The notes beneath the pieces were generated by a model, which was not told the DNA's origin, made no database searches, and was given only the letters and a program-made list of their open reading frames with translations. 64,000 nucleotides of DNA from an uncultured Methanosarcinales archaeon. GTDB taxonomy: Archaea; Nanobdellota; Nanobdellia; Woesearchaeales; UBA11576. The stretch lies in assembly GCA_964406185.1 (NCBI GenBank), contig CAYOQS010000001.1, forward strand, positions 6,121-70,120, given 5' to 3'. How positions within the stretch are numbered: the first letter of the stretch is position 1; every line of letters begins with the position of its first letter. Of this stretch, positions 1,511-64,000 are shown in pieces. Made by a program: the position numbers and the translations under genes.

Positions 1511-3403
1511 TTATCGTCTTTCCTTTATCTCTTCCAGTATCTCTTTGAGGAATGTGTCCGGCTTCTTCTCTCCGTGCACGACATTATCGCGCGTGCGGAC
1601 GTTGACCGTCTCGTTCTCCTGCTCCTTGTCTCCTACGACAAGGATGTAGTTGACCTGCTGGAGCTGCGCTTCCCTGACTTTCTTGGGTATGGACTCTGCG
1701 CGTGAGTCGAGCTCGACCCTTATGCCTGCGTCGAAGAGTTTCTGCCTGAGCATCTCTGCGTACTCGTCGTGCCTGTCCGCCACCGTCAGTATGCGTGCCT
1801 GTACAGGGCTTAGCCATAAAGGGAACTTGCCTGCGTAATGTTCTATGAGCACTCCCAGGAATCTTTCCATCGAACCATAGATGACCCTGTGTATCATGAC
1901 CGGCCTGTGCTTCTTTCCGTCCTCCCCTTCGTAGGTGAGGTCGAAACGTTCAGGGAGGCTCATGTCGAGCTGTATGGTGCCGCACTGCCATGTTCTTCCT
2001 ATCGCGTCTTTTATGTGGAGGTCTATCTTCGGCCCGTAGAAAGCACCGTCGCCTTCGTTTATGTTGTATGCCCTGCCCTTCTCTTCTAGGGCTTTCTTCA
2101 GTCCTTCTGTCGCTTTCTCCCATTGCTCGTCCGTGCCTATTGATTTTTCCGGCCTTGTGGACAGCTCGAGGTGGTAGTCAAGGCCGAACATGGCGTAGAA
2201 TCTTTCGCACAGGTTAAGCACGCCCAAGACTTCCCTGGTTATCTGTTGTTCTGTCATGAATATGTGGGCGTCGTCCTGGTGGAAGCATCTGACACGGAAA
2301 AGTCCTGACAGTACGCCGCTGAGCTCGTGCCTGTGTACGAGTCCTATCTCCCCGACTCTCATCGGCAGTTCCCTGTACGAATGAACTTTCTCGTTGTACA
2401 TGAGCATTCCGCCAGGGCAGTTCATGGGTTTTATCGCATATTCCATATCGTCTATCTTTGTGGTATACATGTTTTCCTTGTAGTTCTGCCAGTGACCGCT
2501 GCGCTCCCATAGCAGCTTGTTGAGCATTATGGGTGTCTTGGATTCTGAGTATCCTGCTTTGCGGTGCTCTTCTCTCCAGAAGTCGATAAGCTGGTTCCAG
2601 ATGACCATACCGTTAGGCGTGAAGAAAGGCATTCCCGGCCCTTCTTCATGGAATGAGAAAAGTTCGAGCTTCTTCCCTATCTTCCTGTGGTCGCGTTTCT
2701 CTGCCTCTTCAAGGAATTTCAGGTGTTCCTTGAGCTCTTCCTTTGTAGGGAAGCTGATGCCGTATATTCTCTGGAGCTGTTTGTTCTTGGCGTCTCCTCT
2801 CCAGTAAGCTCCTGCTATCTTGGTGAGCTTGAATGCTTTTATCATTCCTGTGTTCGGGACGTGCGGTCCTCTGCAGAGGTCGGCGAAGCTTCCCTGCCGG
2901 TAGAGTGTGATCGTTCCTTCTTCGAGCTCTTCTATCATCTCTTTCTTATACTCGTTGTCCCTGAACATCTCGAGCGCGTCTTTTTTGGATACCTCTTCCC
3001 TGACGATGGGCTCTTTGCGTTTCATGATCTCGTGCATCTTCTTCTCTATCTTCTTGAGGTCTTCCGGCTTGAACGGGTCGTGGTCTACGTCGTAGTAGAA
3101 TCCTTCTTCGACGACAGGTCCTATTGTGAGCTTTGCGTAAGGGTAGAGTTCTGTGATCGCGTGCGCCATGAGGTGTGCTGTGCTGTGCCTGAAGACTTCC
3201 ATACCCGCAGGGTCTTTTGGTGTCAGTATCTTGACTTCTGAGTCTTCCGTCACCGGAAAGTCGAGGTCCATCACCTGTCCGTTGATCTTCATCGCCACTG
3301 CGTTCTGCGCAAGGTCTTTGGAAAGGTCTTCAGCTATCTTCGTGCCTTTGACTGTCTCTTTGTATTCTTTGGTAGAACCGTCGGGGAACTTCACTATTAC
3401 CAT
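1511..3403 (-). CDS. thrS: threonyl-tRNA synthetase, bacterial/eukaryal-type architecture (TGS + SAD + class II core + anticodon-binding domain)
   Basis: 630 aa. The N-terminal TGS-like segment is MVIVKFPDGSTKEY...KINGQVMDL. The SAD motif is HSTAHLMAHA. Class II core motifs include FRVRCFHQDDAHIF and GTIQLD, followed by a C-terminal anticodon-binding region. Confidence 0.95.
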   Translation of the reverse strand: MVIVKFPDGSTKEYKETVKGTKIAEDLSKDLAQNAVAMKINGQVMDLDFPVTEDSEVKILTPKDPAGMEVFRHSTAHLMAHAITELYPYAKLTIGPVVEEGFYYDVDHDPFKPEDLKKIEKKMHEIMKRKEPIVREEVSKKDALEMFRDNEYKKEMIEELEEGTITLYRQGSFADLCRGPHVPNTGMIKAFKLTKIAGAYWRGDAKNKQLQRIYGISFPTKEELKEHLKFLEEAEKRDHRKIGKKLELFSFHEEGPGMPFFTPNGMVIWNQLIDFWREEHRKAGYSESKTPIMLNKLLWERSGHWQNYKENMYTTKIDDMEYAIKPMNCPGGMLMYNEKVHSYRELPMRVGEIGLVHRHELSGVLSGLFRVRCFHQDDAHIFMTEQQITREVLGVLNLCERFYAMFGLDYHLELSTRPEKSIGTDEQWEKATEGLKKALEEKGRAYNINEGDGAFYGPKIDLHIKDAIGRTWQCGTIQLDMSLPERFDLTYEGEDGKKHRPVMIHRVIYGSMERFLGVLIEHYAGKFPLWLSPVQARILTVADRHDEYAEMLRQKLFDAGIRVELDSRAESIPKKVREAQLQQVNYILVVGDKEQENETVNVRTRDNVVHGEKKPDTFLKEILEEIKERR

Positions 3404-3509: not shown

Positions 3510-4454
3510 TCAGAGCATCTTTGCCTTCTTGAAATACAGGTATACCATGAGTATGGACAGTATCATGAGACCGAGCGAGAACGGGTAGCCCCATTTCCAT
3601 GGTATCTCTGGCATGTACCTGAAGTTCATGCCGTATATGCTCGCTATCAGCGTGGGTATGAGCACGTATGACGCGACCACTGTGAGCTTTTTTATGACCT
3701 GGTTCATCTGGTTGGAGACTTGTGACGTGTAGATGTCGAGCACTCCTGTCAGCACGTTGCGGAGGGTGTCTTCTGTGTCTATTAGCTGCATTATGTCTTC
3801 GCGTATGTCCTTGAAGTCGTTGATGTTCTTCTTTGCTATCCTGCTTAGGTGCTGTTTCTCTAAAGAGAGCAGAACTTCCCTGTTCGCCACGAGCGCCTTG
3901 TGGAGCATGAGTATTGATTTCCTTATCTTGAATGTCTCTTCGACCGCTTCTTTTCTTGGGTTCTTGAAGAGTGTGGCCTCTATCTTGTCTGCTGTCTCCT
4001 GGAATGTTTCGAAGTGTTCGAAGTAGATGTCGATGAGTTTCTCCATGAGTATCTGTATCGCCAGTGTGGGTGAGTCTAGGTATTTCGGGTTCTTTTCCTG
4101 GAGCTCTTTCTTGAACTTCTCTATGCTCTCCAGCTCTTCTGACCTGAGAGTGAGTATGTTGTCTCCTTTGAATATGAATATCGCCAGGGATGTCGCGTCC
4201 GCGCCTTTTTTCTTTATGACCGGTGCTCCGAGGACGATTAGAGAGAAATTCTCGTGCTCTATGGTCGTGGGCCTTTCATAGCTTACAGTGTGTTCTTTGA
4301 GGTGCCAGACAGGTATTCCTGAGAATTTTGACAGGCTCTCCATTTCCTGTGCAGATGGTTTGTAGCAGTCTACCCACAGGTTTTTCTTTTTTTTGACTGA
4401 TTCAAGCTTTTGGGATACTATCTTGTCTTTTTTTCGTCGGTATGTTGTTATCAT
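3510..4454 (-). CDS. corA: CorA-family magnesium/cobalt transporter
   Basis: 314 aa with the signature YGMNF followed by two C-terminal TM helices, and a typical CorA length and cytoplasmic domain. ATG at 4454. Confidence 0.9.
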   Translation of the reverse strand: MITTYRRKKDKIVSQKLESVKKKKNLWVDCYKPSAQEMESLSKFSGIPVWHLKEHTVSYERPTTIEHENFSLIVLGAPVIKKKGADATSLAIFIFKGDNILTLRSEELESIEKFKKELQEKNPKYLDSPTLAIQILMEKLIDIYFEHFETFQETADKIEATLFKNPRKEAVEETFKIRKSILMLHKALVANREVLLSLEKQHLSRIAKKNINDFKDIREDIMQLIDTEDTLRNVLTGVLDIYTSQVSNQMNQVIKKLTVVASYVLIPTLIASIYGMNFRYMPEIPWKWGYPFSLGLMILSILMVYLYFKKAKML

Positions 4455-5639: not shown

Positions 5640-5996
5640 ATGACCATGGTCATGGATATGAAAATGGTGATCCTTGTCAGGCAGGATCTTAAGCTTCCTA
5701 AGGGCAAGCTTGCTGTTCAGGCCGCCCATGCCGCTGTGGAGGCCACGCTCAGGTCTGGTAAAGTGAAGGTCAGTGCCTGGAGGGTACAGGGGCAGAAGAA
5801 GGTTGTGCTTAAGGTCAAGGATGAGAAGGAATTGCTTAAGTTCATGCAGATGGCCAAGGACGCTGGCCTGAAGACCGCGCTGATAACCGATGCTGGCAGG
5901 ACTGTCATCGCTCCGGGGACCAGGACTTGTGTCGGTATAGGGCCTGATTCAGAGCAGAGCATAGACAGCATCACTGGCGAGCTGCCGATGGTGTGA
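5640..5996 (+). CDS. pth2: peptidyl-tRNA hydrolase, archaeal/eukaryal Pth2 type
   Basis: 118 aa. KMVILVRQDLKLPKGKLAVQAAHAAVEA ... DAGRTVIAPGTRTCVGIGP is the typical Pth2 pattern. The ATG directly abuts the TAA of the previous gene. Confidence 0.85.
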   Translation: MTMVMDMKMVILVRQDLKLPKGKLAVQAAHAAVEATLRSGKVKVSAWRVQGQKKVVLKVKDEKELLKFMQMAKDAGLKTALITDAGRTVIAPGTRTCVGIGPDSEQSIDSITGELPMV

Positions 5997-9227: not shown

Positions 9228-9447
9228 TTTATTGTTTCACCTGCTGCCGGATGCGTGACCGTAGCCGCCTGCTTCTTCGGTTCGCGAAGCGATATCAACC
9301 AAGCACGTACATAAGCGGTTTATTGGGTTGCGTGCTTCGGCGGCACGAGAGCATTTTCGAGTCTTGCGAGAAAATGCGGAGTAGGGTGCGCATTCGGTAT
9401 TTGATGCTGTATGAACCGAAACTTATTAAAAGCTTTCCTCAAAAAGG

Positions 9448-16963: not shown

Positions 16964-17262
16964 AAGAAGGCGAAGAAAAAAGAATCATTTAAAAGTGTTC
17001 CTACAGCTGACTCTATATGCTGCTGCCACGCCGCAGCCGTCCTGCGAGCATATTGAGGGGATGATTGCTCTCGACAGGTGATGGTTTGACAGGTTGTTGA
17101 TCGTATTGCTGGCTCGCGACGCTGCGGCGTGGCGATTATACTGGTGCTATTCCTAGCGGCTCTGTCCAGGATGAGACTGATTAAAGCAAGTTGCGATGCT
17201 GCTGGCGCCTGACAGTATCGCAGATGCAGATATAGATGATTCCTACTTTCTGGACAGAGCCA

Positions 17263-21211: not shown

Positions 21212-22144
21212 ATGGTCAAAGACGCATACAAAGCACTCCTTGAGAAGCAGCAGTATGAGTTCATCGGAAACCACTCTGCTGTCAAGGTCTGTACATGGAC
21301 TAAGAAGTCGTTGCGGGATGAGGGTGTATGCTACAAGGAGAGGTTCTACGGCATCAGGAGCCATCGCTGCTGCCAGCTCTCTGTGACTGTGAATTACTGT
21401 GACATGGACTGTGTGTACTGCTGGCGCGAGCATTACAACGAGCCTTTCACTGATATCGATGACCCGAAGGAACTGGTCAGCAGGGCTATAGCTGCCCAGC
21501 GCAAGCTCCTCTCCGGCTTCGGCGGTCTGGACAGGACAAACAGGGACAAGCTGAAACAGGCCCGGGACCCGGACCAGTTCGCGATATCGCTCACTGGCGA
21601 GACTCTTTACTATCCTCACCTTAGCGGTTTCATCAGGGAGATCAAGGCAAGGGGCTGGAGCTGTTTTGTCGTGACGAATGGCATGCTGCCTGATGTCATG
21701 GAGAAGCTGGAGCCGCCCACCCAGCTTTACCTTTCTGTTGACTCTCCGGACGCTGCACTCCAAAAAGAGCTCTGCAGGCCGGACCATCCTGATGCGTGGC
21801 AGCGGTTGCTGAAGAGCCTTGAAATACTTAAAGCGATCAGGGGTAAGACCCGCACCTGTCTGCGAATAACCTGCATCAAGGGTATGAACATGAAAGACCC
21901 TGAAGGCTACGCAGGACTCATAAGGCGCGCAGAGCCTCACTTCGTGGAGGTCAAGGCGTACATGTTCGTCGGAGCCTCAAGACTCAAGCTCAGCATGGAG
22001 AACATGCCGCGCCATGAAGAGGTGAAAGAGTTCGCAGGGAGGATCGCAGAAGCTGCGGGCTACAGGGTCATCGATGAGCACTCTCCCTCCCGTGTGGTGT
22101 TGCTGATGAAGGAAGACTTTCCCGGAAGAATCATGGGTTTGTGA
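21212..22144 (+). CDS. taw1: radical SAM 4-demethylwyosine synthase (Taw1/TYW1)
   Basis: 310 aa. The N-terminus LLEKQQYEFIGNHSAVKVCTWTKKSL is typical of Taw1, with the radical SAM cluster CDMDCVYCWR and a second Cys set. Confidence 0.85.
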   Translation: MVKDAYKALLEKQQYEFIGNHSAVKVCTWTKKSLRDEGVCYKERFYGIRSHRCCQLSVTVNYCDMDCVYCWREHYNEPFTDIDDPKELVSRAIAAQRKLLSGFGGLDRTNRDKLKQARDPDQFAISLTGETLYYPHLSGFIREIKARGWSCFVVTNGMLPDVMEKLEPPTQLYLSVDSPDAALQKELCRPDHPDAWQRLLKSLEILKAIRGKTRTCLRITCIKGMNMKDPEGYAGLIRRAEPHFVEVKAYMFVGASRLKLSMENMPRHEEVKEFAGRIAEAAGYRVIDEHSPSRVVLLMKEDFPGRIMGL

Positions 22145-27386: not shown

Positions 27387-28130
27387 TCATCCTCTTCTGT
27401 TGAATATCTCTCTCGCTTCCTCGAGCTGCTCATGGCTTCCGATATCGTACCAATGCTCTTCGAAGGGATACGCGAAAACATCCCTGACTGTCATGAGGTG
27501 CTTGACGAAATCCCCTGTGTTGTCAGGCATGCCCACTTCCTTTATGTGTTTCTCGAGCTCTTCTATGTCCTGCTTCGTGTACATGTACACGCATGTGGAC
27601 GCGAGGGATGATCGGGGCTTTTCGGGCTTTTCCTCAAAGCTGATTATCTTGTTTCCTTCATCTATCTCTACCGTTCCGAATTTCTTGGCGAGCTTGGCAG
27701 GGTCTCCCAGGTCTCTTGCCGCGTTGACAGGGCCTTTCTTTGCGGTGAACAGGGAGTACATCCCGAGAAGGCTGAAGTCGAAGAGGTTGTCCCCGCCCAC
27801 TATGACTATATCGTCGTCGATGCCCGCGTTCTTTATCACAAAGTGTATGTCACCTACCGCGCCGAGCCGGTCATCGTTGGTCTTGGTGCCGTCGTTGTGT
27901 ATGACGATGTTCTTGTTGCAGGAGAACCCGTTCCTCCATTCGAGGAAGTTGTCGTAGAACTTCTCGTTCGTGACTATATGTATCTCATCTATGGGGTCGA
28001 GATCCTCAAGCTTGTGTATGATGTGCTCGACCATCTTCTTCTTCCCCACCTCGAGCAGTGGCTTCGGGGTGTTCAGGGTCAGAGGGTAAAGCCTTGTTGC
28101 ATACCCTGCCGCAAGTATTATCGCTTTCAT
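27387..28130 (-). CDS. sugar-phosphate nucleotidyltransferase (glucose-1-phosphate thymidylyl/uridylyltransferase-like)
   Basis: MKAIILAAGYATRLYPLTLNTPKPLLEV matches the GxGTRLxPLTxxxPK signature. 247 aa. Confidence 0.8.
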   Translation of the reverse strand: MKAIILAAGYATRLYPLTLNTPKPLLEVGKKKMVEHIIHKLEDLDPIDEIHIVTNEKFYDNFLEWRNGFSCNKNIVIHNDGTKTNDDRLGAVGDIHFVIKNAGIDDDIVIVGGDNLFDFSLLGMYSLFTAKKGPVNAARDLGDPAKLAKKFGTVEIDEGNKIISFEEKPEKPRSSLASTCVYMYTKQDIEELEKHIKEVGMPDNTGDFVKHLMTVRDVFAYPFEEHWYDIGSHEQLEEAREIFNRRG

Positions 28131-29365
28131 CTTCTCACCACCTTCTTCACCTTCTCATACAGGTGTTCGCTGTTCCTGATTATGTCGTCTATGAGCTGTT
28201 CTGCCTTGATGTATCTTCTCTTCACGTATGTGCAGACCCGTCCTTTCTCTATGAATGTCTTGCCGTGCTTATTCCTGAAGTTCTTCACCCTTTCCTTCTC
28301 TCTTAGGGGAGGCCCTATCCATTTTTTTATCGGGACCAGGTCCTTTGGCTCCACTATGTACCAGAATACCGCTTTCCTCTTCTTGTTCCATTTCCACCCT
28401 GCGTCGATGACTTCAAAGTCGTAGAATTTGAGCTGGTTCCTTATCTGCTGGTATGCCTTGAGAAGCTTTGCGCCTACCACATCTTCCTTGCCTGTCGGAG
28501 CTGTCACGTCAAGTATCATCAGCTTGTTCTTGCCTGCCTCTTCTTTGATGTCCTTCTCTGTCTTTTCCGTCACGACAAAGAAGTCTTTAGATGGGCTGGT
28601 CAGGAATTCCTTTGCTGCTTTCCTGAATATCTCTAGCTTTTCATAAGATAGGGCGGCGGCTGCGTTCCTCTCCGGCAGGACAGGATCTATGATTATGATC
28701 GGGCTGTCTGTCTTTGACCTGTTGAGCTTTTTCAGCGCATCCCGCCTGTAGTGCTTTTCCGGGTCGATGACCTGCTTGTCCTTCCACCCTTGTGATGCCC
28801 TCAGGAGCTTCATGAATCCCTTGTGATGTATGACTAGTATGTCGAGCACGTGCCCTGAGAATCCCTTGATGTAGGATTCTGCCCCGTAGACGTGCGCGGC
28901 CTTGCAGAATTGTTTGGCAAGCCTTATGTCGTCGTTGAACCCGGGGTGCTTCTTGACCCATTTTACATGGAAAGGGCTCATGTCGGTTACGTTCACGGCT
29001 TCTTCCGGCCGCTTGATGTCGAGGACAGGGACTATTTCGTAGTTTATCCTGTTCCTGATCATGTAGTAGTCCCTGCTGCCGTGGACCTTTTCAGGCCTGA
29101 ACAGCCTGAGAGCTTTTGCGAGGAGCGACGAGATGTCTTTGTCCTTGTAGGTCTTGCTGAACTTGACGAACATATCGCAGTCGTGGTCGCCTTTTAGGTA
29201 TGTGTCTTTCGCTATGGATCCGCCCAGCACTGCTTTTGCCTTGAGCCCTTTCTTCTTTATTTCAGAATTCAGTTTATGCTGGAAATCCTTGACTTCCTTG
29301 AGAAGAGTCTTGTCTGTGGGCTTTATCTCTTTTATCACGTCGTCCAGTATGTTCTTGGCGCTCAT
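28127..29365 (-). CDS. cca: CCA-adding tRNA nucleotidyltransferase, archaeal class I
   Basis: 412 aa. LGGSIAKDTYLKGDHDCDMFVKF matches the class I GSxxxGTxLxGxxDIDxF motif, and the length is typical. It overlaps the downstream gene by 4 nt. Confidence 0.8.
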   Translation of the reverse strand: MSAKNILDDVIKEIKPTDKTLLKEVKDFQHKLNSEIKKKGLKAKAVLGGSIAKDTYLKGDHDCDMFVKFSKTYKDKDISSLLAKALRLFRPEKVHGSRDYYMIRNRINYEIVPVLDIKRPEEAVNVTDMSPFHVKWVKKHPGFNDDIRLAKQFCKAAHVYGAESYIKGFSGHVLDILVIHHKGFMKLLRASQGWKDKQVIDPEKHYRRDALKKLNRSKTDSPIIIIDPVLPERNAAAALSYEKLEIFRKAAKEFLTSPSKDFFVVTEKTEKDIKEEAGKNKLMILDVTAPTGKEDVVGAKLLKAYQQIRNQLKFYDFEVIDAGWKWNKKRKAVFWYIVEPKDLVPIKKWIGPPLREKERVKNFRNKHGKTFIEKGRVCTYVKRRYIKAEQLIDDIIRNSEHLYEKVKKVVRR

Positions 29366-43310: not shown

Positions 43311-44450
<1,140 letters not shown>

Positions 44451-44541: not shown

Positions 44542-46296
44542 ATGAAACGCACTCATACTTGTGGTGAGCTGAGGAAGAAGGACGCGGGCAAGCCTGCCAT
44601 TCTCCAGGGCTGGGTTGACAAGAACCGCGATCATGGCGGTGTGATATTCATCAACCTGCGTGACCGTTATGGGATCGCCCAATTGGTGATCAAGCCTGAG
44701 AGCGGCTTCTTCAAGACAGCTGAGGGCATCAGGCGCGAGTCTGTTCTTGAGGCTTCTGGAAGTGTGGTTGAGCGTGAACAGAAGAATCCTGACATGCCGA
44801 CCGGTGATGTGGAGCTTGCCGTGGAGGAGCTGAATGTCCTGTCGATGGCTGACCCTTTGCCTGTCGAATATAAGGATATCGACAACATTACAGAGGATAA
44901 TCGTCTGAAGTTCAGGTATCTTGACCTTCGCCGTGCTGGGATGCAGCAGAACCTTCTCATGAGGCACAGGATCTGCAAGACAGCCAGGGATTTCATGGAC
45001 TGTCAGGGTTTTGTCGAGGTGGAGACTCCTGTGCTTGCGAAATCCACTCCAGAGGGTGCTCGTGATTATCTTGTTCCCAGCAGGGTGCATCCAGGGGATT
45101 TTTTTGCCCTGCCGCAGAGCCCGCAGCAGTACAAGCAGCTGCTGATGGTGTCCGGTCTTGACAGGTATTTCCAGATCGTGAAGTGTTTCAGGGATGAGGA
45201 TCTGCGCGCTGACCGTCAGCCGGAGTTCACGCAGATCGATATCGAGGCGAGCTTCCTGGCTCCTGATGATTTTTTCGGTATCATCGAGGGGCTGATGAAG
45301 AGGCTGTTCAGTGAAGTGAAAGGTGTTGATATAAAGACGCCTTTCCCGAGGATGACTTATCATGAGGCGATGGACCGGTTCGGAATTGACCGTCCTGACA
45401 CACGTTTCGGTCTTGAGATTGAGGACGTGTCTGAAGTGCTTGGAAAGTGTGATTTCAAGATTTTTCAGTCTGCTGTGGACAGCGGGGGGTGCATCAAGTG
45501 CATAGTAGTTGAGGATGCGGATTTCTCGAGGAAGGATATCGATGAGTTCGAGAATGTCGTGAAGACCTACGGCGCCAAGGGTCTTGCCTGGCTTCGCGTT
45601 GGCGATGAGCTTGAGGGTGGCGTTTCAAAGTTCATCAATGATGAGGCTGCTGAGAAGCTGAAGAATGTGGCAGGCCTTAAGAAAGGGTGTATGGTCTTTA
45701 TCGTCGCGGACCATAAGCATTATACTGCACAGACCGCTTTGGGCCAGCTCCGCCTTCTGCTGGGTAAGAGGCTTGGCCTTATCGATGGGAAGCAGGATGA
45801 CCTGTTGTGGGTCGTGGATTTTCCTCTTCTTGAGTTCGACGAGGATGAGCAGAGGCATGTCGCTGTGCATCATCCTTTTACCGCTCCGAAGCAGGAGCAT
45901 CTTAAGTATCTTGAGAATGAGCCTGAGAAGGCTTTGGCTGACGCTTACGATCTTGTCTGGAACGGTGTGGAGATCGCTGGCGGGAGCAGGAGGATACATG
46001 AGCGTGAGGTGCAGGAGAAGGTGTTCTCTCTTCTCGGGATCAGCAGGGAGGATGCTGAGGTGAAGTTCAGCATGCTGCTTGAGGCTTTCCGTTACGGCGC
46101 TCCTCCGCACGGAGGTATCGCTTTCGGCCTGGACAGGCTTGTGGCTCTTTTCACAGGCAATGAGTCCATCCGTGAGGTCATCGCGTTCCCTAAGAACAAG
46201 ATGTGTCATGCGCTCATGGAGGGCGCGCCGAGCGGTGTGGATGAGAGCCAGCTCGAGGAGCTTCATATCAGGTTGCGCGACAGGAAGACAGGTTAG
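44542..46296 (+). CDS. aspS: aspartyl-tRNA synthetase, bacterial-type (long form with insertion domain)
   Basis: About 584 aa from ATG 44542 (MKRTHTCGELR). It has FINLRDRYG, FFALPQSPQQYKQLLM, FRDEDLRADRQPEFTQID, an insertion of about 130 aa between motifs 2 and 3, and GGIAFGLDRL. Confidence 0.95.
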   Translation: MKRTHTCGELRKKDAGKPAILQGWVDKNRDHGGVIFINLRDRYGIAQLVIKPESGFFKTAEGIRRESVLEASGSVVEREQKNPDMPTGDVELAVEELNVLSMADPLPVEYKDIDNITEDNRLKFRYLDLRRAGMQQNLLMRHRICKTARDFMDCQGFVEVETPVLAKSTPEGARDYLVPSRVHPGDFFALPQSPQQYKQLLMVSGLDRYFQIVKCFRDEDLRADRQPEFTQIDIEASFLAPDDFFGIIEGLMKRLFSEVKGVDIKTPFPRMTYHEAMDRFGIDRPDTRFGLEIEDVSEVLGKCDFKIFQSAVDSGGCIKCIVVEDADFSRKDIDEFENVVKTYGAKGLAWLRVGDELEGGVSKFINDEAAEKLKNVAGLKKGCMVFIVADHKHYTAQTALGQLRLLLGKRLGLIDGKQDDLLWVVDFPLLEFDEDEQRHVAVHHPFTAPKQEHLKYLENEPEKALADAYDLVWNGVEIAGGSRRIHEREVQEKVFSLLGISREDAEVKFSMLLEAFRYGAPPHGGIAFGLDRLVALFTGNESIREVIAFPKNKMCHALMEGAPSGVDESQLEELHIRLRDRKTG

Positions 46297-59392: not shown

Positions 59393-59869
59393 ATGTTGAT
59401 AAAAGATCTTCAGCCCCGTCAGACCAATGTTGATGTCGAGGGGGAAGTGCTGGAAGTGAGCGATGTCAGGGAGTTCACCAAGTTCGGCAGGCAGGGCCGT
59501 GTAGCGAGCGCGATTATCACGGACGGTTCGGGCAAGGTCAAGCTTTCTCTGTGGAATGAGCAGATCGAGCAGGTGAAGCCCGGCGATACTGTCAGGATCA
59601 TGAAGGGTTATGTCAGCGAGTTCCAGGGTGAGCTCCAGCTTACCACGGGCAAGTTCGGCACTCTTGAGGTCGTGAAGGGTGACGGGAAGGAAGGAGTAGC
59701 TGCTGAGGAGGAAAAGCCACCTGAGCCGGAACCAGAGCCAGAGCAGCAGGCGGCGTCTTCTGAAGGATCTGCTCCTGAGAAAAATCCTTTGCCTGAAGAG
59801 GCGGAGCCTGAGAAGAAGGTGACCGCTCCGCAGGAATCTCTTGATGTTGAGGAGGAAGACTTCTCCTGA
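59393..59869 (+). CDS. single OB-fold ssDNA-binding protein (SSB/RPA-like) with an acidic flexible tail
   Basis: 158 aa. The OB-fold pattern is VDVEGEVLEVSDVREF...GRVASAIITDGSGKVKLSLWNEQ...GDTVRI..GYVSEFQGELQL, then a PE-rich linker and an acidic end LDVEEEDFS. AGGTGAT lies 4 nt before the ATG. Confidence 0.6.
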   Translation: MLIKDLQPRQTNVDVEGEVLEVSDVREFTKFGRQGRVASAIITDGSGKVKLSLWNEQIEQVKPGDTVRIMKGYVSEFQGELQLTTGKFGTLEVVKGDGKEGVAAEEEKPPEPEPEPEQQAASSEGSAPEKNPLPEEAEPEKKVTAPQESLDVEEEDFS

Positions 59870-59957
59870 ACAAAAGTTATATAAAGAGAAAATAATCTTC
59901 GTTCTGCACTTAGATTGTCAGGGCTTTGGCCGATGAGATGTTATTTGAGTACCAAAT

Positions 59958-60168
59958 GGGGCGGTAGCTCAATCTGGGACCTGCTGAGCTTGTGAAGCTG
60001 GCGGCAGGAAAGAGCACACAGTGCAAAACACTGGCTTAAACGGCTGAAGATTTTTCAGTGCAGATTGGAGTAGTATCTTATCGGATACCGTGGTGTTCCG
60101 GGTTCAAATTTAAAGCTACGCTTTAAAGCTGAAAATGCGGAGTTTTTTTGGAAGTCCCGGCCGTCCCA
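59958..60168 (+). tRNA. tRNA-Phe (anticodon GAA) with four putative BHB introns
   Basis: The exons are 59958-59978, 60011-60017, 60040-60049, 60087-60108 and 60155-60168. Joined, they give the 74-nt GGGGCGGTAGCTCAATCTGGGAGAGCACACGGCTGAAGACCGTGGTGTTCCGGGTTCAAATCCCGGCCGTCCCA. This folds as a full cloverleaf with anticodon loop CTGAAGA and T-loop TTCAAAT. No CCA is encoded, and TTTT follows at 60169. Confidence 0.8.
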
Positions 60169-60180
60169 TTTTAGAAATGC

Positions 60181-60253
60181 AAAATCCCGATGAAGTCGGG
60201 ATTTTGTGTTTTCAAATGCTCGATGATCCCAGACGACCGAAGGGAGTCGGGAT
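60181..60253. repeat. two related hairpins sharing the arm TCGGGAT between the convergent tRNA and Zn-ribbon operon
   Basis: H1 is AAAATCCCGA-tgaag-TCGGGATTTT (60181-60205, 10 bp perfect). H2 is ATCCCaGAC-gaccgaaggga-GTCGGGAT (60226-60253, 8 bp with one bulge). Confidence 0.6.
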
Positions 60254-60300
60254 TATCTTTGTATTTGAGAAATGTCTAATACCTTACCGGTTCTTAAGAA

Positions 60301-60696
60301 CTAATCCTTCTTCTCCCTGAACTCGCTCCTTCTCTGGAATGTCTCTGCGACGTCTATCATGTACTTGCCTTCTGCGAGCTTGAACACTACTGGTTTTTCC
60401 TTGTTGAACAGCTGCACCAGGTCGAGCTCGAACTTGCCCGGCTCTGTTATGCGTATAGACTCAAGATCAAGCACTACTGCTTCGTCTGTGTCTTCCACAC
60501 CTATTATCTCCTTGACGTCCTCTTCTATCTGGTCTTTCTGCTCTTCGGTCAGTGTGGTGGTTATGGTCTTCGCTTTCTCCAGCGAGTCTTTCTTGACATA
60601 GAACCAGAGTCTTGAACCGCATCCGCAGCCTTTGAGCAGGAGCTGTGAGTCTCCGTCATCGTGGAGCTTTCCGCATCTTACGCATTGGTGGGGCAT
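60301..60696 (-). CDS. Zn-ribbon-containing protein (conserved archaeal, COG3364-like)
   Basis: 131 aa with MPHQCVRCGKLHDDGDSQLLLKGCGCGSRLWFYV. The ATG overlaps the stop of the upstream gene (TAATG). Confidence 0.7.
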   Translation of the reverse strand: MPHQCVRCGKLHDDGDSQLLLKGCGCGSRLWFYVKKDSLEKAKTITTTLTEEQKDQIEEDVKEIIGVEDTDEAVVLDLESIRITEPGKFELDLVQLFNKEKPVVFKLAEGKYMIDVAETFQRRSEFREKKD

Positions 60697-63265: not shown

Positions 63266-64000
63266 CTATTGCCCTTGCTGTAACTCCTGCTGTGCCTGCT
63301 GGTACGCTTCTCTTATGACTTTGTCTGCGGTGTCTGGTTCCCATCCTATCTGGAGCAGGTGTCCGCGTATCTCGTCCGGGGCGTATCCTTCTTTAAGGAC
63401 CTGCTTGACGTAGTTGCGGAGTTCTGTCACCTGGGGGCTTTCCGCCTGCGCTGCTGCTCCTGTATGCGCTGTAGGTGTTTGCATCGTGGGCTGTGCAGCT
63501 CCTGCTGGTGGCGTGCCTGCTCCTGCTACTGTCTGCCCGGCACCTGGTGCTCCCGCGCCCGGCATGCCTGCGCCCTGCGTTACTCCTGGTGTTATTCCTG
63601 GCTTGCCTGTTGGCGGTTTCTTTCCCGCTTCGGCAGGGGGTTTCGGTCCTTTGCCTTTGAGCATGACTCCTGCTACCACTCCGACAACTACCAGCACGAT
63701 GACTCCGAGGATTATTATGCTTGTTGTCATGCTCATGCCTGCCATGCCGCTGGGCTCTTGAAGTATGCCTATCTCGTCTTCGTATGTTCCCTGCTGGAGG
63801 TGTTCCTCAAGCAGCTGCCTCTGCGACCTGGTGAGCTTGTCTATGCAGCATGCGAGGTCGCCTTCTATCAGCTGCTCTGGTGTGGCCATAGTCTTCAGCG
63901 CGGGGCAGTATTTGACCTTGAACGCTGCGTCGCATATGACATTTCCGCCGAGCTCTACATATTTTGATTTGAGTATCTGGTAGTCCTGGTCTATAGCTCC
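63266..64000 (-). CDS. single-pass membrane protein with a G/A/P-rich linker and a small helical C-terminal domain; 5' end beyond the window
   Basis: The frame is open from 63889 up to the window end (…VICDAAFKVKYCPALKT precedes the first Met), so the gene probably starts beyond 64000. It has the TM helix SIIILGVIVLVVVGVVAGVML, the linker GAGMPGAGAPGAGQTVAGAG, and the C-terminus LRNYVKQVLKEGYAPDEIRGHLLQIGWEPDTADKVIREA. Confidence 0.5.
   Translation of the reverse strand, partial: GAIDQDYQILKSKYVELGGNVICDAAFKVKYCPALKTMATPEQLIEGDLACCIDKLTRSQRQLLEEHLQQGTYEDEIGILQEPSGMAGMSMTTSIIILGVIVLVVVGVVAGVMLKGKGPKPPAEAGKKPPTGKPGITPGVTQGAGMPGAGAPGAGQTVAGAGTPPAGAAQPTMQTPTAHTGAAAQAESPQVTELRNYVKQVLKEGYAPDEIRGHLLQIGWEPDTADKVIREAYQQAQQELQQGQ

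Follow-up and report, generated by a model that had tools for sequence, protein, structure and literature searches.

A predicted four-intron tRNA-Phe(GAA) gene in a Woesearchaeota (DPANN) archaeon

Archaeal tRNA genes are known to carry at most three introns (PMC8450103, PMC4033280), a ceiling that the first-pass annotation of the DNA studied here had also given. The nearest parallels to the gene described below come from the Thermoproteales (Pyrobaculum and Thermofilum; Sugahara et al. 2007/2008, as recounted in PMC4033280 and PMC8450103), in which, according to these accounts, several short introns of the bulge-helix-bulge (BHB) type, canonical and non-canonical in position, likewise interrupt a single colinear gene, relaxed motifs (HBh′, hBH) are likewise used, closely spaced introns leave one before the motif of the next can form, and standard tRNA finders overlook the genes. 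The DNA analyzed here is a stretch of 64,000 nt of contig CAYOQS010000001.1 (hereafter the window), which in all probability contains, at 59958-60168, a functional tRNA-Phe(GAA) gene of a Woesearchaeota (DPANN) archaeon that is interrupted by four introns and is predicted to be expressed. The gene therefore has one intron more than the maximum of three given for the Thermoproteales in the accounts cited, and no report of a four-intron tRNA was found in a full-text literature search. The hosts also differ, that of the window being a mesophile-type DPANN archaeon whereas the Thermoproteales are hyperthermophilic crenarchaea, and by analogy with other DPANN archaea the splicing endonuclease expected here would be an α4 enzyme with an L3 loop (PMC5829648), not an (αβ)2 enzyme with the crenarchaeal loop. 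DPANN endonucleases (EndA) of the α4 type with the L3 insert have been linked to more extensive tRNA disruption, and incomplete DPANN tRNA sets have been attributed to undetected disrupted genes (PMC5829648); this was the only paper that our literature search on disrupted tRNAs of DPANN archaea returned.

Similar arrangements are known from other lineages. Nuclear tRNA genes of Cyanidioschyzon merolae likewise contain introns of the BHB type, at most three, which lie in the D-arm, in the T-loop or at 37/38, and they include a tRNA-Phe(GAA) with a D-stem intron and a 37/38 intron; ordered removal, with the outer introns leaving before the one at 37/38, has been shown there experimentally (PMC3728597). 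These genes differ from that of the window in that some are also permuted, and no relation by descent exists between them. Split and permuted tRNAs (Nanoarchaeum equitans, Caldivirga, Thermofilum) share the requirement for recognition of BHB motifs by EndA and are found among DPANN and TACK archaea as well. Because the exons of the window gene are colinear and contiguous on one strand within 211 nt, neither trans-splicing nor permutation is needed, and the gene is neither split nor permuted. Its third intron corresponds to the canonical archaeal hBHBh′ intron at 37/38, in which the anticodon stem serves as outer helix, anticodon-loop nt 32-35 pair with the intron and both cuts fall after the second bulge nucleotide, although its inner helix is weak and three non-canonical introns accompany it. 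As read from the sequence, the four-intron gene is a new extreme of the known BHB multi-intron tRNAs, which had been anticipated, but previously not shown, in DPANN archaea.

The five exons (21, 7, 10, 22 and 14 nt) and the four insertions proposed in the first-pass annotation were recovered from the sequence to the nucleotide (Table 1), and the joined exons form a 74-mer, GGGGCGGTAGCTCAATCTGGGAGAGCACACGGCTGAAGACCGTGGTGTTCCGGGTTCAAATCCCGGCCGTCCCA, that ARAGORN calls as tRNA-Phe(GAA) with a 7/4/5/5 cloverleaf. The identity elements of tRNA-Phe are G20, the anticodon G34 A35 A36 and A73; all of these are present in the spliced sequence, together with G37, and G20 is the last base of exon 1. CCA is not encoded at the 3′ end of the gene. 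In one orthologous locus (L006), the syntenic position is occupied by a tRNA-Phe gene without introns, which is identical to the spliced product at 74/74 nucleotides and reaches 65.5 bits with the Rfam model RF00005 (threshold 29, E=3e-14); since the two sequences are the same, this is also the covariance score of the window product, and the identification made by eye in the first-pass annotation stands. Without splicing, the window yields no tRNA by ARAGORN, whether or not the intron option is used, and no Rfam/Infernal tRNA match at the gathering threshold, at E<=0.5 window-wide or at E<=10 locally, as had been foreseen for automatic finders.

Comparison with relatives gave the decisive evidence that the four insertions interrupt a tRNA gene. 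We recovered 21 orthologous loci and designate the introns at 20/21, 27/28, 37/38 and 59/60 as I1 to I4. The loci have no intron (L006, L012, L013), I1 only (L215), I3 only (L010), I4 only (L208, L211), I2 and I3 (L007, L008, L009, L212), I3 and I4 (L005 and L214, the latter truncated at its 5′ end), I1, I3 and I4 (L003, L004, L209/L210, L216), or introns at 30/31, 37/38 and 59/60 (L014), and I1 to I4 occur together in the window only. Each intron of the window recurs at precisely its own site among the relatives, which carry from none to three: homologues of I1 are confined to L003, L004, L209/210, L215 and L216, 15 of the 21 orthologues have a 37/38 intron, which comes in at least three sequence types, and an intron at 59/60 is present in L003, L004, L005, L014, L208, L209, L211, L214 and L216. 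In a MAFFT alignment with the orthologues the four insertions appear as clean indels at the predicted junctions. All spliced orthologues are 74 nt long; pairing in the cloverleaf is complete (100%), and 9 of the 21 pairs are altered on both sides, values that none of 500 shuffles reached. The window exons are 95-100% identical to those of the relatives and homologous introns 35-92%, which indicates purifying selection on the exons and much less on the introns; no substitution is private to the window exons, which are identical to those of L006, L209 and L216. Four freely chosen deletions give many degrees of freedom, and a cloverleaf might be put together by chance from five short segments in this way. 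Such a coincidence deserves hardly any weight and is refuted by the identity to an intact orthologue over the full 74 nt, by the clean indels of the alignment and by the occurrence of the same introns in relatives.

Two features of the relatives deserve mention in their own right. L014 (plus strand, about 4067-4270) is a more distantly related tRNA-Phe from Woesearchaeota. Of its three introns, one lies at a fifth position, 30/31, and the loop of this 30/31 intron is a T7 run; the locus thus offers at least five sites for insertion and is a hotspot for introns. A different type of 37/38 intron, 45-51 nt long, occurs in L003, L004, L008, L009, L010, L212, L214 and L216 and contains a conserved hairpin, ATGATGA-CCC-GCAA-GGG-GATGA(T/C)T, with kink-turn (K-turn) geometry and a C-box-like sequence, beside which the anticodon loop itself provides CUGA.

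The splice sites were defined by one rule, derived from the canonical 37/38 case, according to which the 4 exon nt just 5′ of the first bulge pair with the 4 intron nt just 5′ of the second, and both cuts fall after bulge nucleotide 2. The first-pass annotation had applied this rule to all four introns, and its geometry does hold at every site: each has a 4-bp central helix with one G-U pair and two 3-nt bulges, and the central pairings and the inner helix of intron 2 were as that annotation had given them (Table 1). By sequence alone the junctions could slide in the 3′ direction, by 1 nt for introns 1, 3 and 4 and by 2 nt for intron 2; the BHB geometry is satisfied only by the positions in Table 1. 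A junction at 21/22 was considered for intron 1 and rejected, as the shifted central helix CUGG:AGGA is unpaired. In the orthologues a Watson-Crick pair replaces the G-U pair of the central helix, as in the change of the intron-2 strand GCUU to GCUC in L009/L212 and that of the intron-4 strand UGGA to UGAA in L004 and L005, where pairing is kept. The central partner CAGG of intron 1 is CAGA in L004 and CAGU in L003.

The helices that flank the four motifs differ considerably in quality. Introns 1, 3 and 4 had been described as relaxed motifs with weak outer and inner helices, which is true of intron 1 and of the inner helix of intron 3, but not of the outer helices of introns 3 and 4; these are the anticodon stem (CACGG/CCGUG) and the T stem (CCGGG/CCCGG), both perfect over 5 bp, and the two motifs are accordingly of the hBHB form. 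Intron 1 has the weakest BHB of the four, its flanking helices being partial: the outer helix is the D stem, offset by 2 nt through A14 and A15, the inner helix is 2 bp long (CC/GG), and an intronic hairpin, CCUGC/GCAGG, competes with the central helix. Intron 2 lacks an outer helix and has a perfect 5-bp inner helix, CAGUG/CACUG, which in L008 reads CAGCG/CGCUG, a compensatory double change. Intron 4 contains an internal hairpin, UUAAAGC/GCUUUAA. It also contains an internal UGAA (60131-60134) that pairs better with the T-loop UUCA than does the terminal UGGA and is preferred in the minimum free energy (MFE) fold. Use of this UGAA as the functional 3′ site was rejected, since an outer helix is lacking there and 19 nt would stay behind in the T-loop. 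Intron 4 gives the impression of an originally short 59/60 intron that was extended by a 19-nt tail repeating the 3′ splice motif.

How the four-intron allele came about can be approached from its mosaic appearance. In a neighbour-joining tree of the concatenated GTPase, OapB and OapC proteins encoded beside the tRNA gene (480 columns, without support values), the window falls among L215 (I1 only), L214 (I3 and I4), L212 (I2 and I3) and L211 (I4 only). The intron pattern thus departs from the tree of the flanking genes, which implies that precise losses, gains or recombination of alleles have been frequent. Intron 1 of the window, which ends in CAGGAA, and its long intron 4 resemble those of L216, whereas intron 2 and the 37-nt, type-A intron 3 resemble those of L007 (92% and 78% identity), and recombination between an L216-like allele with I1 and I4 and an L007-like allele with I2 and I3 may have been a simple route to four introns. 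Introns seem to have been gained, lost and recombined rapidly in this clade, and the allele would be the end point of that process. The same mosaic would be expected if the assembly or binning had joined intron-bearing alleles of co-occurring strains into a chimeric gene that exists in no cell, and the Logan contigs of the locus end just downstream of the tRNA gene, at 60185-60208. Such an artefact is nevertheless highly improbable: the whole 211-nt locus and its flanks are identical to the window in the assemblies of two independent read sets, SRR15425351 and SRR15425350, and the exons between the introns, at 7-22 nt, are shorter than typical assembly k-mers, which makes a chimeric join inside them unlikely.

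With regard to the order of intron removal, ensemble probabilities of the central helices were computed in each of the sixteen splicing intermediates. The motif of intron 2 is formed in the MFE fold of the 211-nt precursor, and in the ensemble of the full precursor the central helix of intron 2 has a probability of 0.95 and those of the other three at most 0.03. Upon removal of intron 2, the value for intron 3 rises to 0.57 and that for intron 4 to 0.37. The central helix of intron 2 engages G22-C25, which are needed in the D stem, the outer helix of intron 1; the motifs of introns 1 and 2 are thus mutually exclusive, and intron 2 should leave before intron 1. Together the models suggest that intron 2 would be removed first, followed by introns 3 and 4, with intron 1 last or released through protein-assisted refolding.

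Several observations weigh against a functional four-intron gene. The central helix of intron 1 has a probability of about 0 in the window ensembles, because the hairpin CCUGC/GCAGG competes with it, and that of intron 4 is poorly populated (0.03-0.09), because the internal UGAA competes. A T7 tract lies on the sense strand of intron 4, at 60143-60149, 5 nt upstream of the last exon, and a T5 run on the sense strand of intron 3, at 60051-60055. Oligo-T tracts terminate archaeal RNA polymerase, so part of the transcripts may end at the T7 tract, before exon 5; within the 56.7 kb of window open reading frames (ORFs), sense-strand T runs of at least seven occur once, and several stand directly after plus-strand genes. 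The homologous long intron 4 of L216 is without T7 and has GCTTTGA at this place, which marks the tract of the window as a recent change. Finally, no gene for the splicing endonuclease was found in the window, a Pfam scan of 60 of its 66 ORFs giving no tRNA_int_endo match and the precomputed Pfam annotations of the remaining ORFs other than 63266-63889 including no EndA.

The T tracts, in a genome in which sense-strand T7 runs are avoided within genes and placed at gene ends, and the poorly populated helices of introns 1 and 4 would all be expected if the gene had recently been disabled, its accumulated insertions, above all the T7 in intron 4 and the self-pairing intron 1, blocking formation of the mature tRNA and a second tRNA-Phe gene elsewhere supplying the cell. 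We consider this distinctly unlikely. The exons, as described above, have no substitution of their own, all four central helices are intact, and the site is the conserved syntenic tRNA-Phe locus of the relatives. Low ensemble probabilities are also seen in single-intron orthologues that must be spliced (L010, 0.02; L215, 0.07; L208, 0.11), and are hence only weak evidence against splicing; in the unspliced precursors of L003, L004 and L209, the central helix of intron 1 itself has a probability of 0.63-0.95. Runs of T are found in introns of L014 as well (T7 at 30/31, T6 in I3) and seem to be tolerated. DPANN genomes are small and their tRNA genes are usually single-copy, which speaks against a second gene, and the one at 59958-60168 is most likely the sole tRNA-Phe gene in its genome. 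A functional gene from which all four introns are spliced is thus the reading that we favor.

Production of the mature tRNA from this gene would begin with transcription from the BRE/TATA (B-recognition element/TATA) box at 59872-59885, giving a leader of about 50 nt followed by the 211-nt body. EndA would cut after the second nucleotide of each of the eight 3-nt bulges, an RtcB-type ligase would join the five exons, and the flanks would be removed by RNase P and 3′ trimming. As CCA is not encoded, a CCA-adding enzyme is needed, and it would complete the 3′ end; G37, the last base of exon 3, would be converted to a wyosine derivative by way of Trm5 and Taw1. Taw1 and the CCA-adding enzyme are both encoded in the window, as the first-pass annotation had noted, and Pfam matches support both assignments (Table 1).

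The box AAAAG(T/G/C)TATATAAA precedes tRNA-Phe in the orthologues compared; a sigma-70 and intrinsic-terminator scan is inapplicable to archaea. Between this putative promoter and the gene lies a leader module, CCAGATTG-YYGA-GGC..GCC-RATGA, that is conserved in L003, L004, L007-L009, L208, L211, L212 and L215. Its CCAGATTG part is antisense to D-loop nt 13-19 and is followed by a D′-like YYGA/CUGA, by GGC and GCC separated by 4 to about 70 nt, and by a C′-like RATGA, with GA-stem-GAU-GA in K-turn geometry. The leader covaries with exon position 16, the exon sequence CAACCTGG of L008/L009 being accompanied by the leader sequences CAGGTTG/TAGGTTG, and the copies in the window (TTAGATTG-TCAG) and in L216 are degraded. 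Judged against box C/D RNAs, in which C (RUGAUGA) and D (CUGA) boxes form K-turns and a 10-12-nt guide ends at D or D′, the module has a D′-like box, a hairpin, a C′-like GAUGA and 8 nt of D-loop antisense, and no convincing terminal C/D box. Possible roles are those of a C/D-like guide in cis, with C17 as target, and of a folding chaperone. A tie between the leader and the D-arm introns was ruled out, as L208 and L211, which have I4 only, carry the leader. No copy of the leader K-turn hairpin beyond chance was seen elsewhere in the window, and the same was true of the downstream hairpins described below.

The D-arm appears to be matched a second time within the gene. The sequence CAGATTGGAG in intron 3 (60061-60070) is complementary to exon 1 at positions 10-18 of the D-arm and pairs with the D-arm in the MFE fold of the precursor; its counterpart in intron 3 of L007 is CAGATTGA. 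This D-arm antisense, CAGAUUGGAG, is thus a second antisense to the region targeted by the leader. A comprehensive model, which we regard as rather unlikely in its entirety, would make the precursor a self-chaperoning cascade, in which the mutual exclusion of introns 1 and 2 orders splicing, the D-arm-antisense modules acting in cis steer refolding or guide 2′-O-methylation of C17 in C/D fashion, and the four-intron allele itself arose in the population by recombination of an allele bearing I1 and I4 with one bearing I2 and I3.

Downstream of the gene, the stretch that separates it from OapC contains two hairpin modules, at 60181-60205 (AAAATCCCGA-TGAAG-TCGGGATTTT) and at 60222-60257 (GATGATCCC...GGGATTATC). 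Both are followed by T-rich sequence and could represent terminator modules or belong to a repeat family; similar modules are repeated two to three times in L003, L004 and L216. Additional copies of the tRNA 3′ end were observed in two relatives, as GTCCCCGCCGTCCCA about 200 nt 3′ of the tRNA in L005 and as tandem GCGTCCCATTTTTATT repeats 3′ of the tRNA in L008; these copies adjoin a common element, GGGGCCAGC(A/G)CCTACGGGGAAA, and look like att-site remnants of elements that integrate at tRNA-Phe.

The surroundings of the gene are conserved in the relatives, in which an OB-fold protein (59393-59869 in the window) precedes tRNA-Phe and convergent OapC-OapB-GTPase-MCM-like genes follow it. The closest relatives of the neighbouring OapC protein (60301-60696, minus strand; Pfam OapC) are 55-81% identical and come from metagenome-assembled genomes labelled Woesearchaeota, Nanoarchaeota or Nanoarchaeia (DPANN). 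ARAGORN, Rfam and a pattern search combining T-arm and acceptor stem revealed no further tRNA in the 64 kb, and reading of the eight intergenic gaps longer than 200 nt revealed no hidden one. Genes for enzymes of tRNA metabolism are numerous in the window (Table 1). A metagenome scan with AAAGAGCACACAGYG, which joins the end of intron 1, exon 2 and the start of intron 2, returned at least 120 chance matches and no tRNA-Phe, the pattern being too short; GGCAGNAAAGAGCACACAGYG is a longer pattern for alleles with introns 1 and 2. Two intergenic stretches, 9228-9447 and 16964-17262, are GC-rich and look structured, the latter containing a long inverted repeat (TGCCACGCCGCAGC / GCTGCGGCGTGGCGA); they have no Rfam match and could be unannotated RNAs.

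Table 1. Coordinates of the tRNA-Phe(GAA) gene, its flanking elements and other tRNA-related genes in the window
Feature	Coordinates	Strand	Description
tRNA-Phe(GAA) gene, 5 exons + 4 introns	59958-60168	+	211-nt body
Exon 1	59958-59978	+	tRNA positions 1-20: acceptor 5′ strand, D-stem 5′ strand, most of D-loop
Intron 1 (20/21)	59979-60010	+	32 nt; central helix UCUG:CAGG; bulges GG^A, AA^A
Exon 2	60011-60017	+	Positions 21-27: A21, D-stem 3′ strand GAGC, A26, C27
Intron 2 (27/28)	60018-60039	+	22 nt; HBh′; central helix GAGC:GCUU; bulges AC^A, AA^A
Exon 3	60040-60049	+	Positions 28-37: anticodon-stem 5′ strand, C32 U33, anticodon GAA, G37
Intron 3 (canonical 37/38)	60050-60086	+	37 nt; central helix CUGA:UCGG; bulges AG^A, AU^A
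Exon 4	60087-60108	+	Positions 38-59: anticodon-stem 3′ strand, variable loop, T-stem 5′ strand, T-loop to A59
Intron 4 (59/60)	60109-60154	+	46 nt; central helix UUCA:UGGA; bulges AA^U, AG^U
Exon 5	60155-60168	+	Positions 60-73: U60, T-stem 3′ strand, acceptor 3′ strand, discriminator A73
BRE/TATA-like promoter	59872-59885	+	AAAAG-TTATATAAA, read from sequence; putative function
5′-leader element	59910-59938	+	D-loop antisense TTAGATTG, TCAG, hairpin GGC-TTTG-GCC, GATGAGA (K-turn-like)
T4 tract	60169-60172	+	Directly after A73; likely transcription stop and start of 3′ trailer
Taw1	21212-22144	+	Pfam Wyosine_form (3.5e-26) and Radical_SAM; wyosine synthesis on m1G37 of tRNA-Phe; context only
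Archaeal CCA-adding enzyme	28127-29365	-	Pfam tRNA_NucTransf2 (6.7e-35), CAA_C (1.9e-15); context only
Threonyl-tRNA synthetase (ThrRS)	1511-3403		
Pth2	5640-5996		
Archaeosine tRNA-guanine transglycosylase (TGT)	43311-44447		
Aspartyl-tRNA synthetase (AspRS)	44542-46296		

By adding a fourth intron, the gene at 59958-60168 would move the known ceiling on BHB introns in a single tRNA gene from three to four. That this extreme is found in a DPANN archaeon means that standard annotation will undercount the tRNAs of such genomes and misjudge their completeness. The mutually exclusive motifs of introns 1 and 2 offer a concrete substrate for the study of ordered splicing and of the range of DPANN endonucleases. 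Among the 21 orthologues, a natural series, most combinations of the four introns are represented at a single locus. Snapshots of intron gain and loss have been wished for by reviewers of the field (PMC4033280), and this series, in which the intron pattern is uncoupled from the tree of the flanking genes, is such a snapshot.

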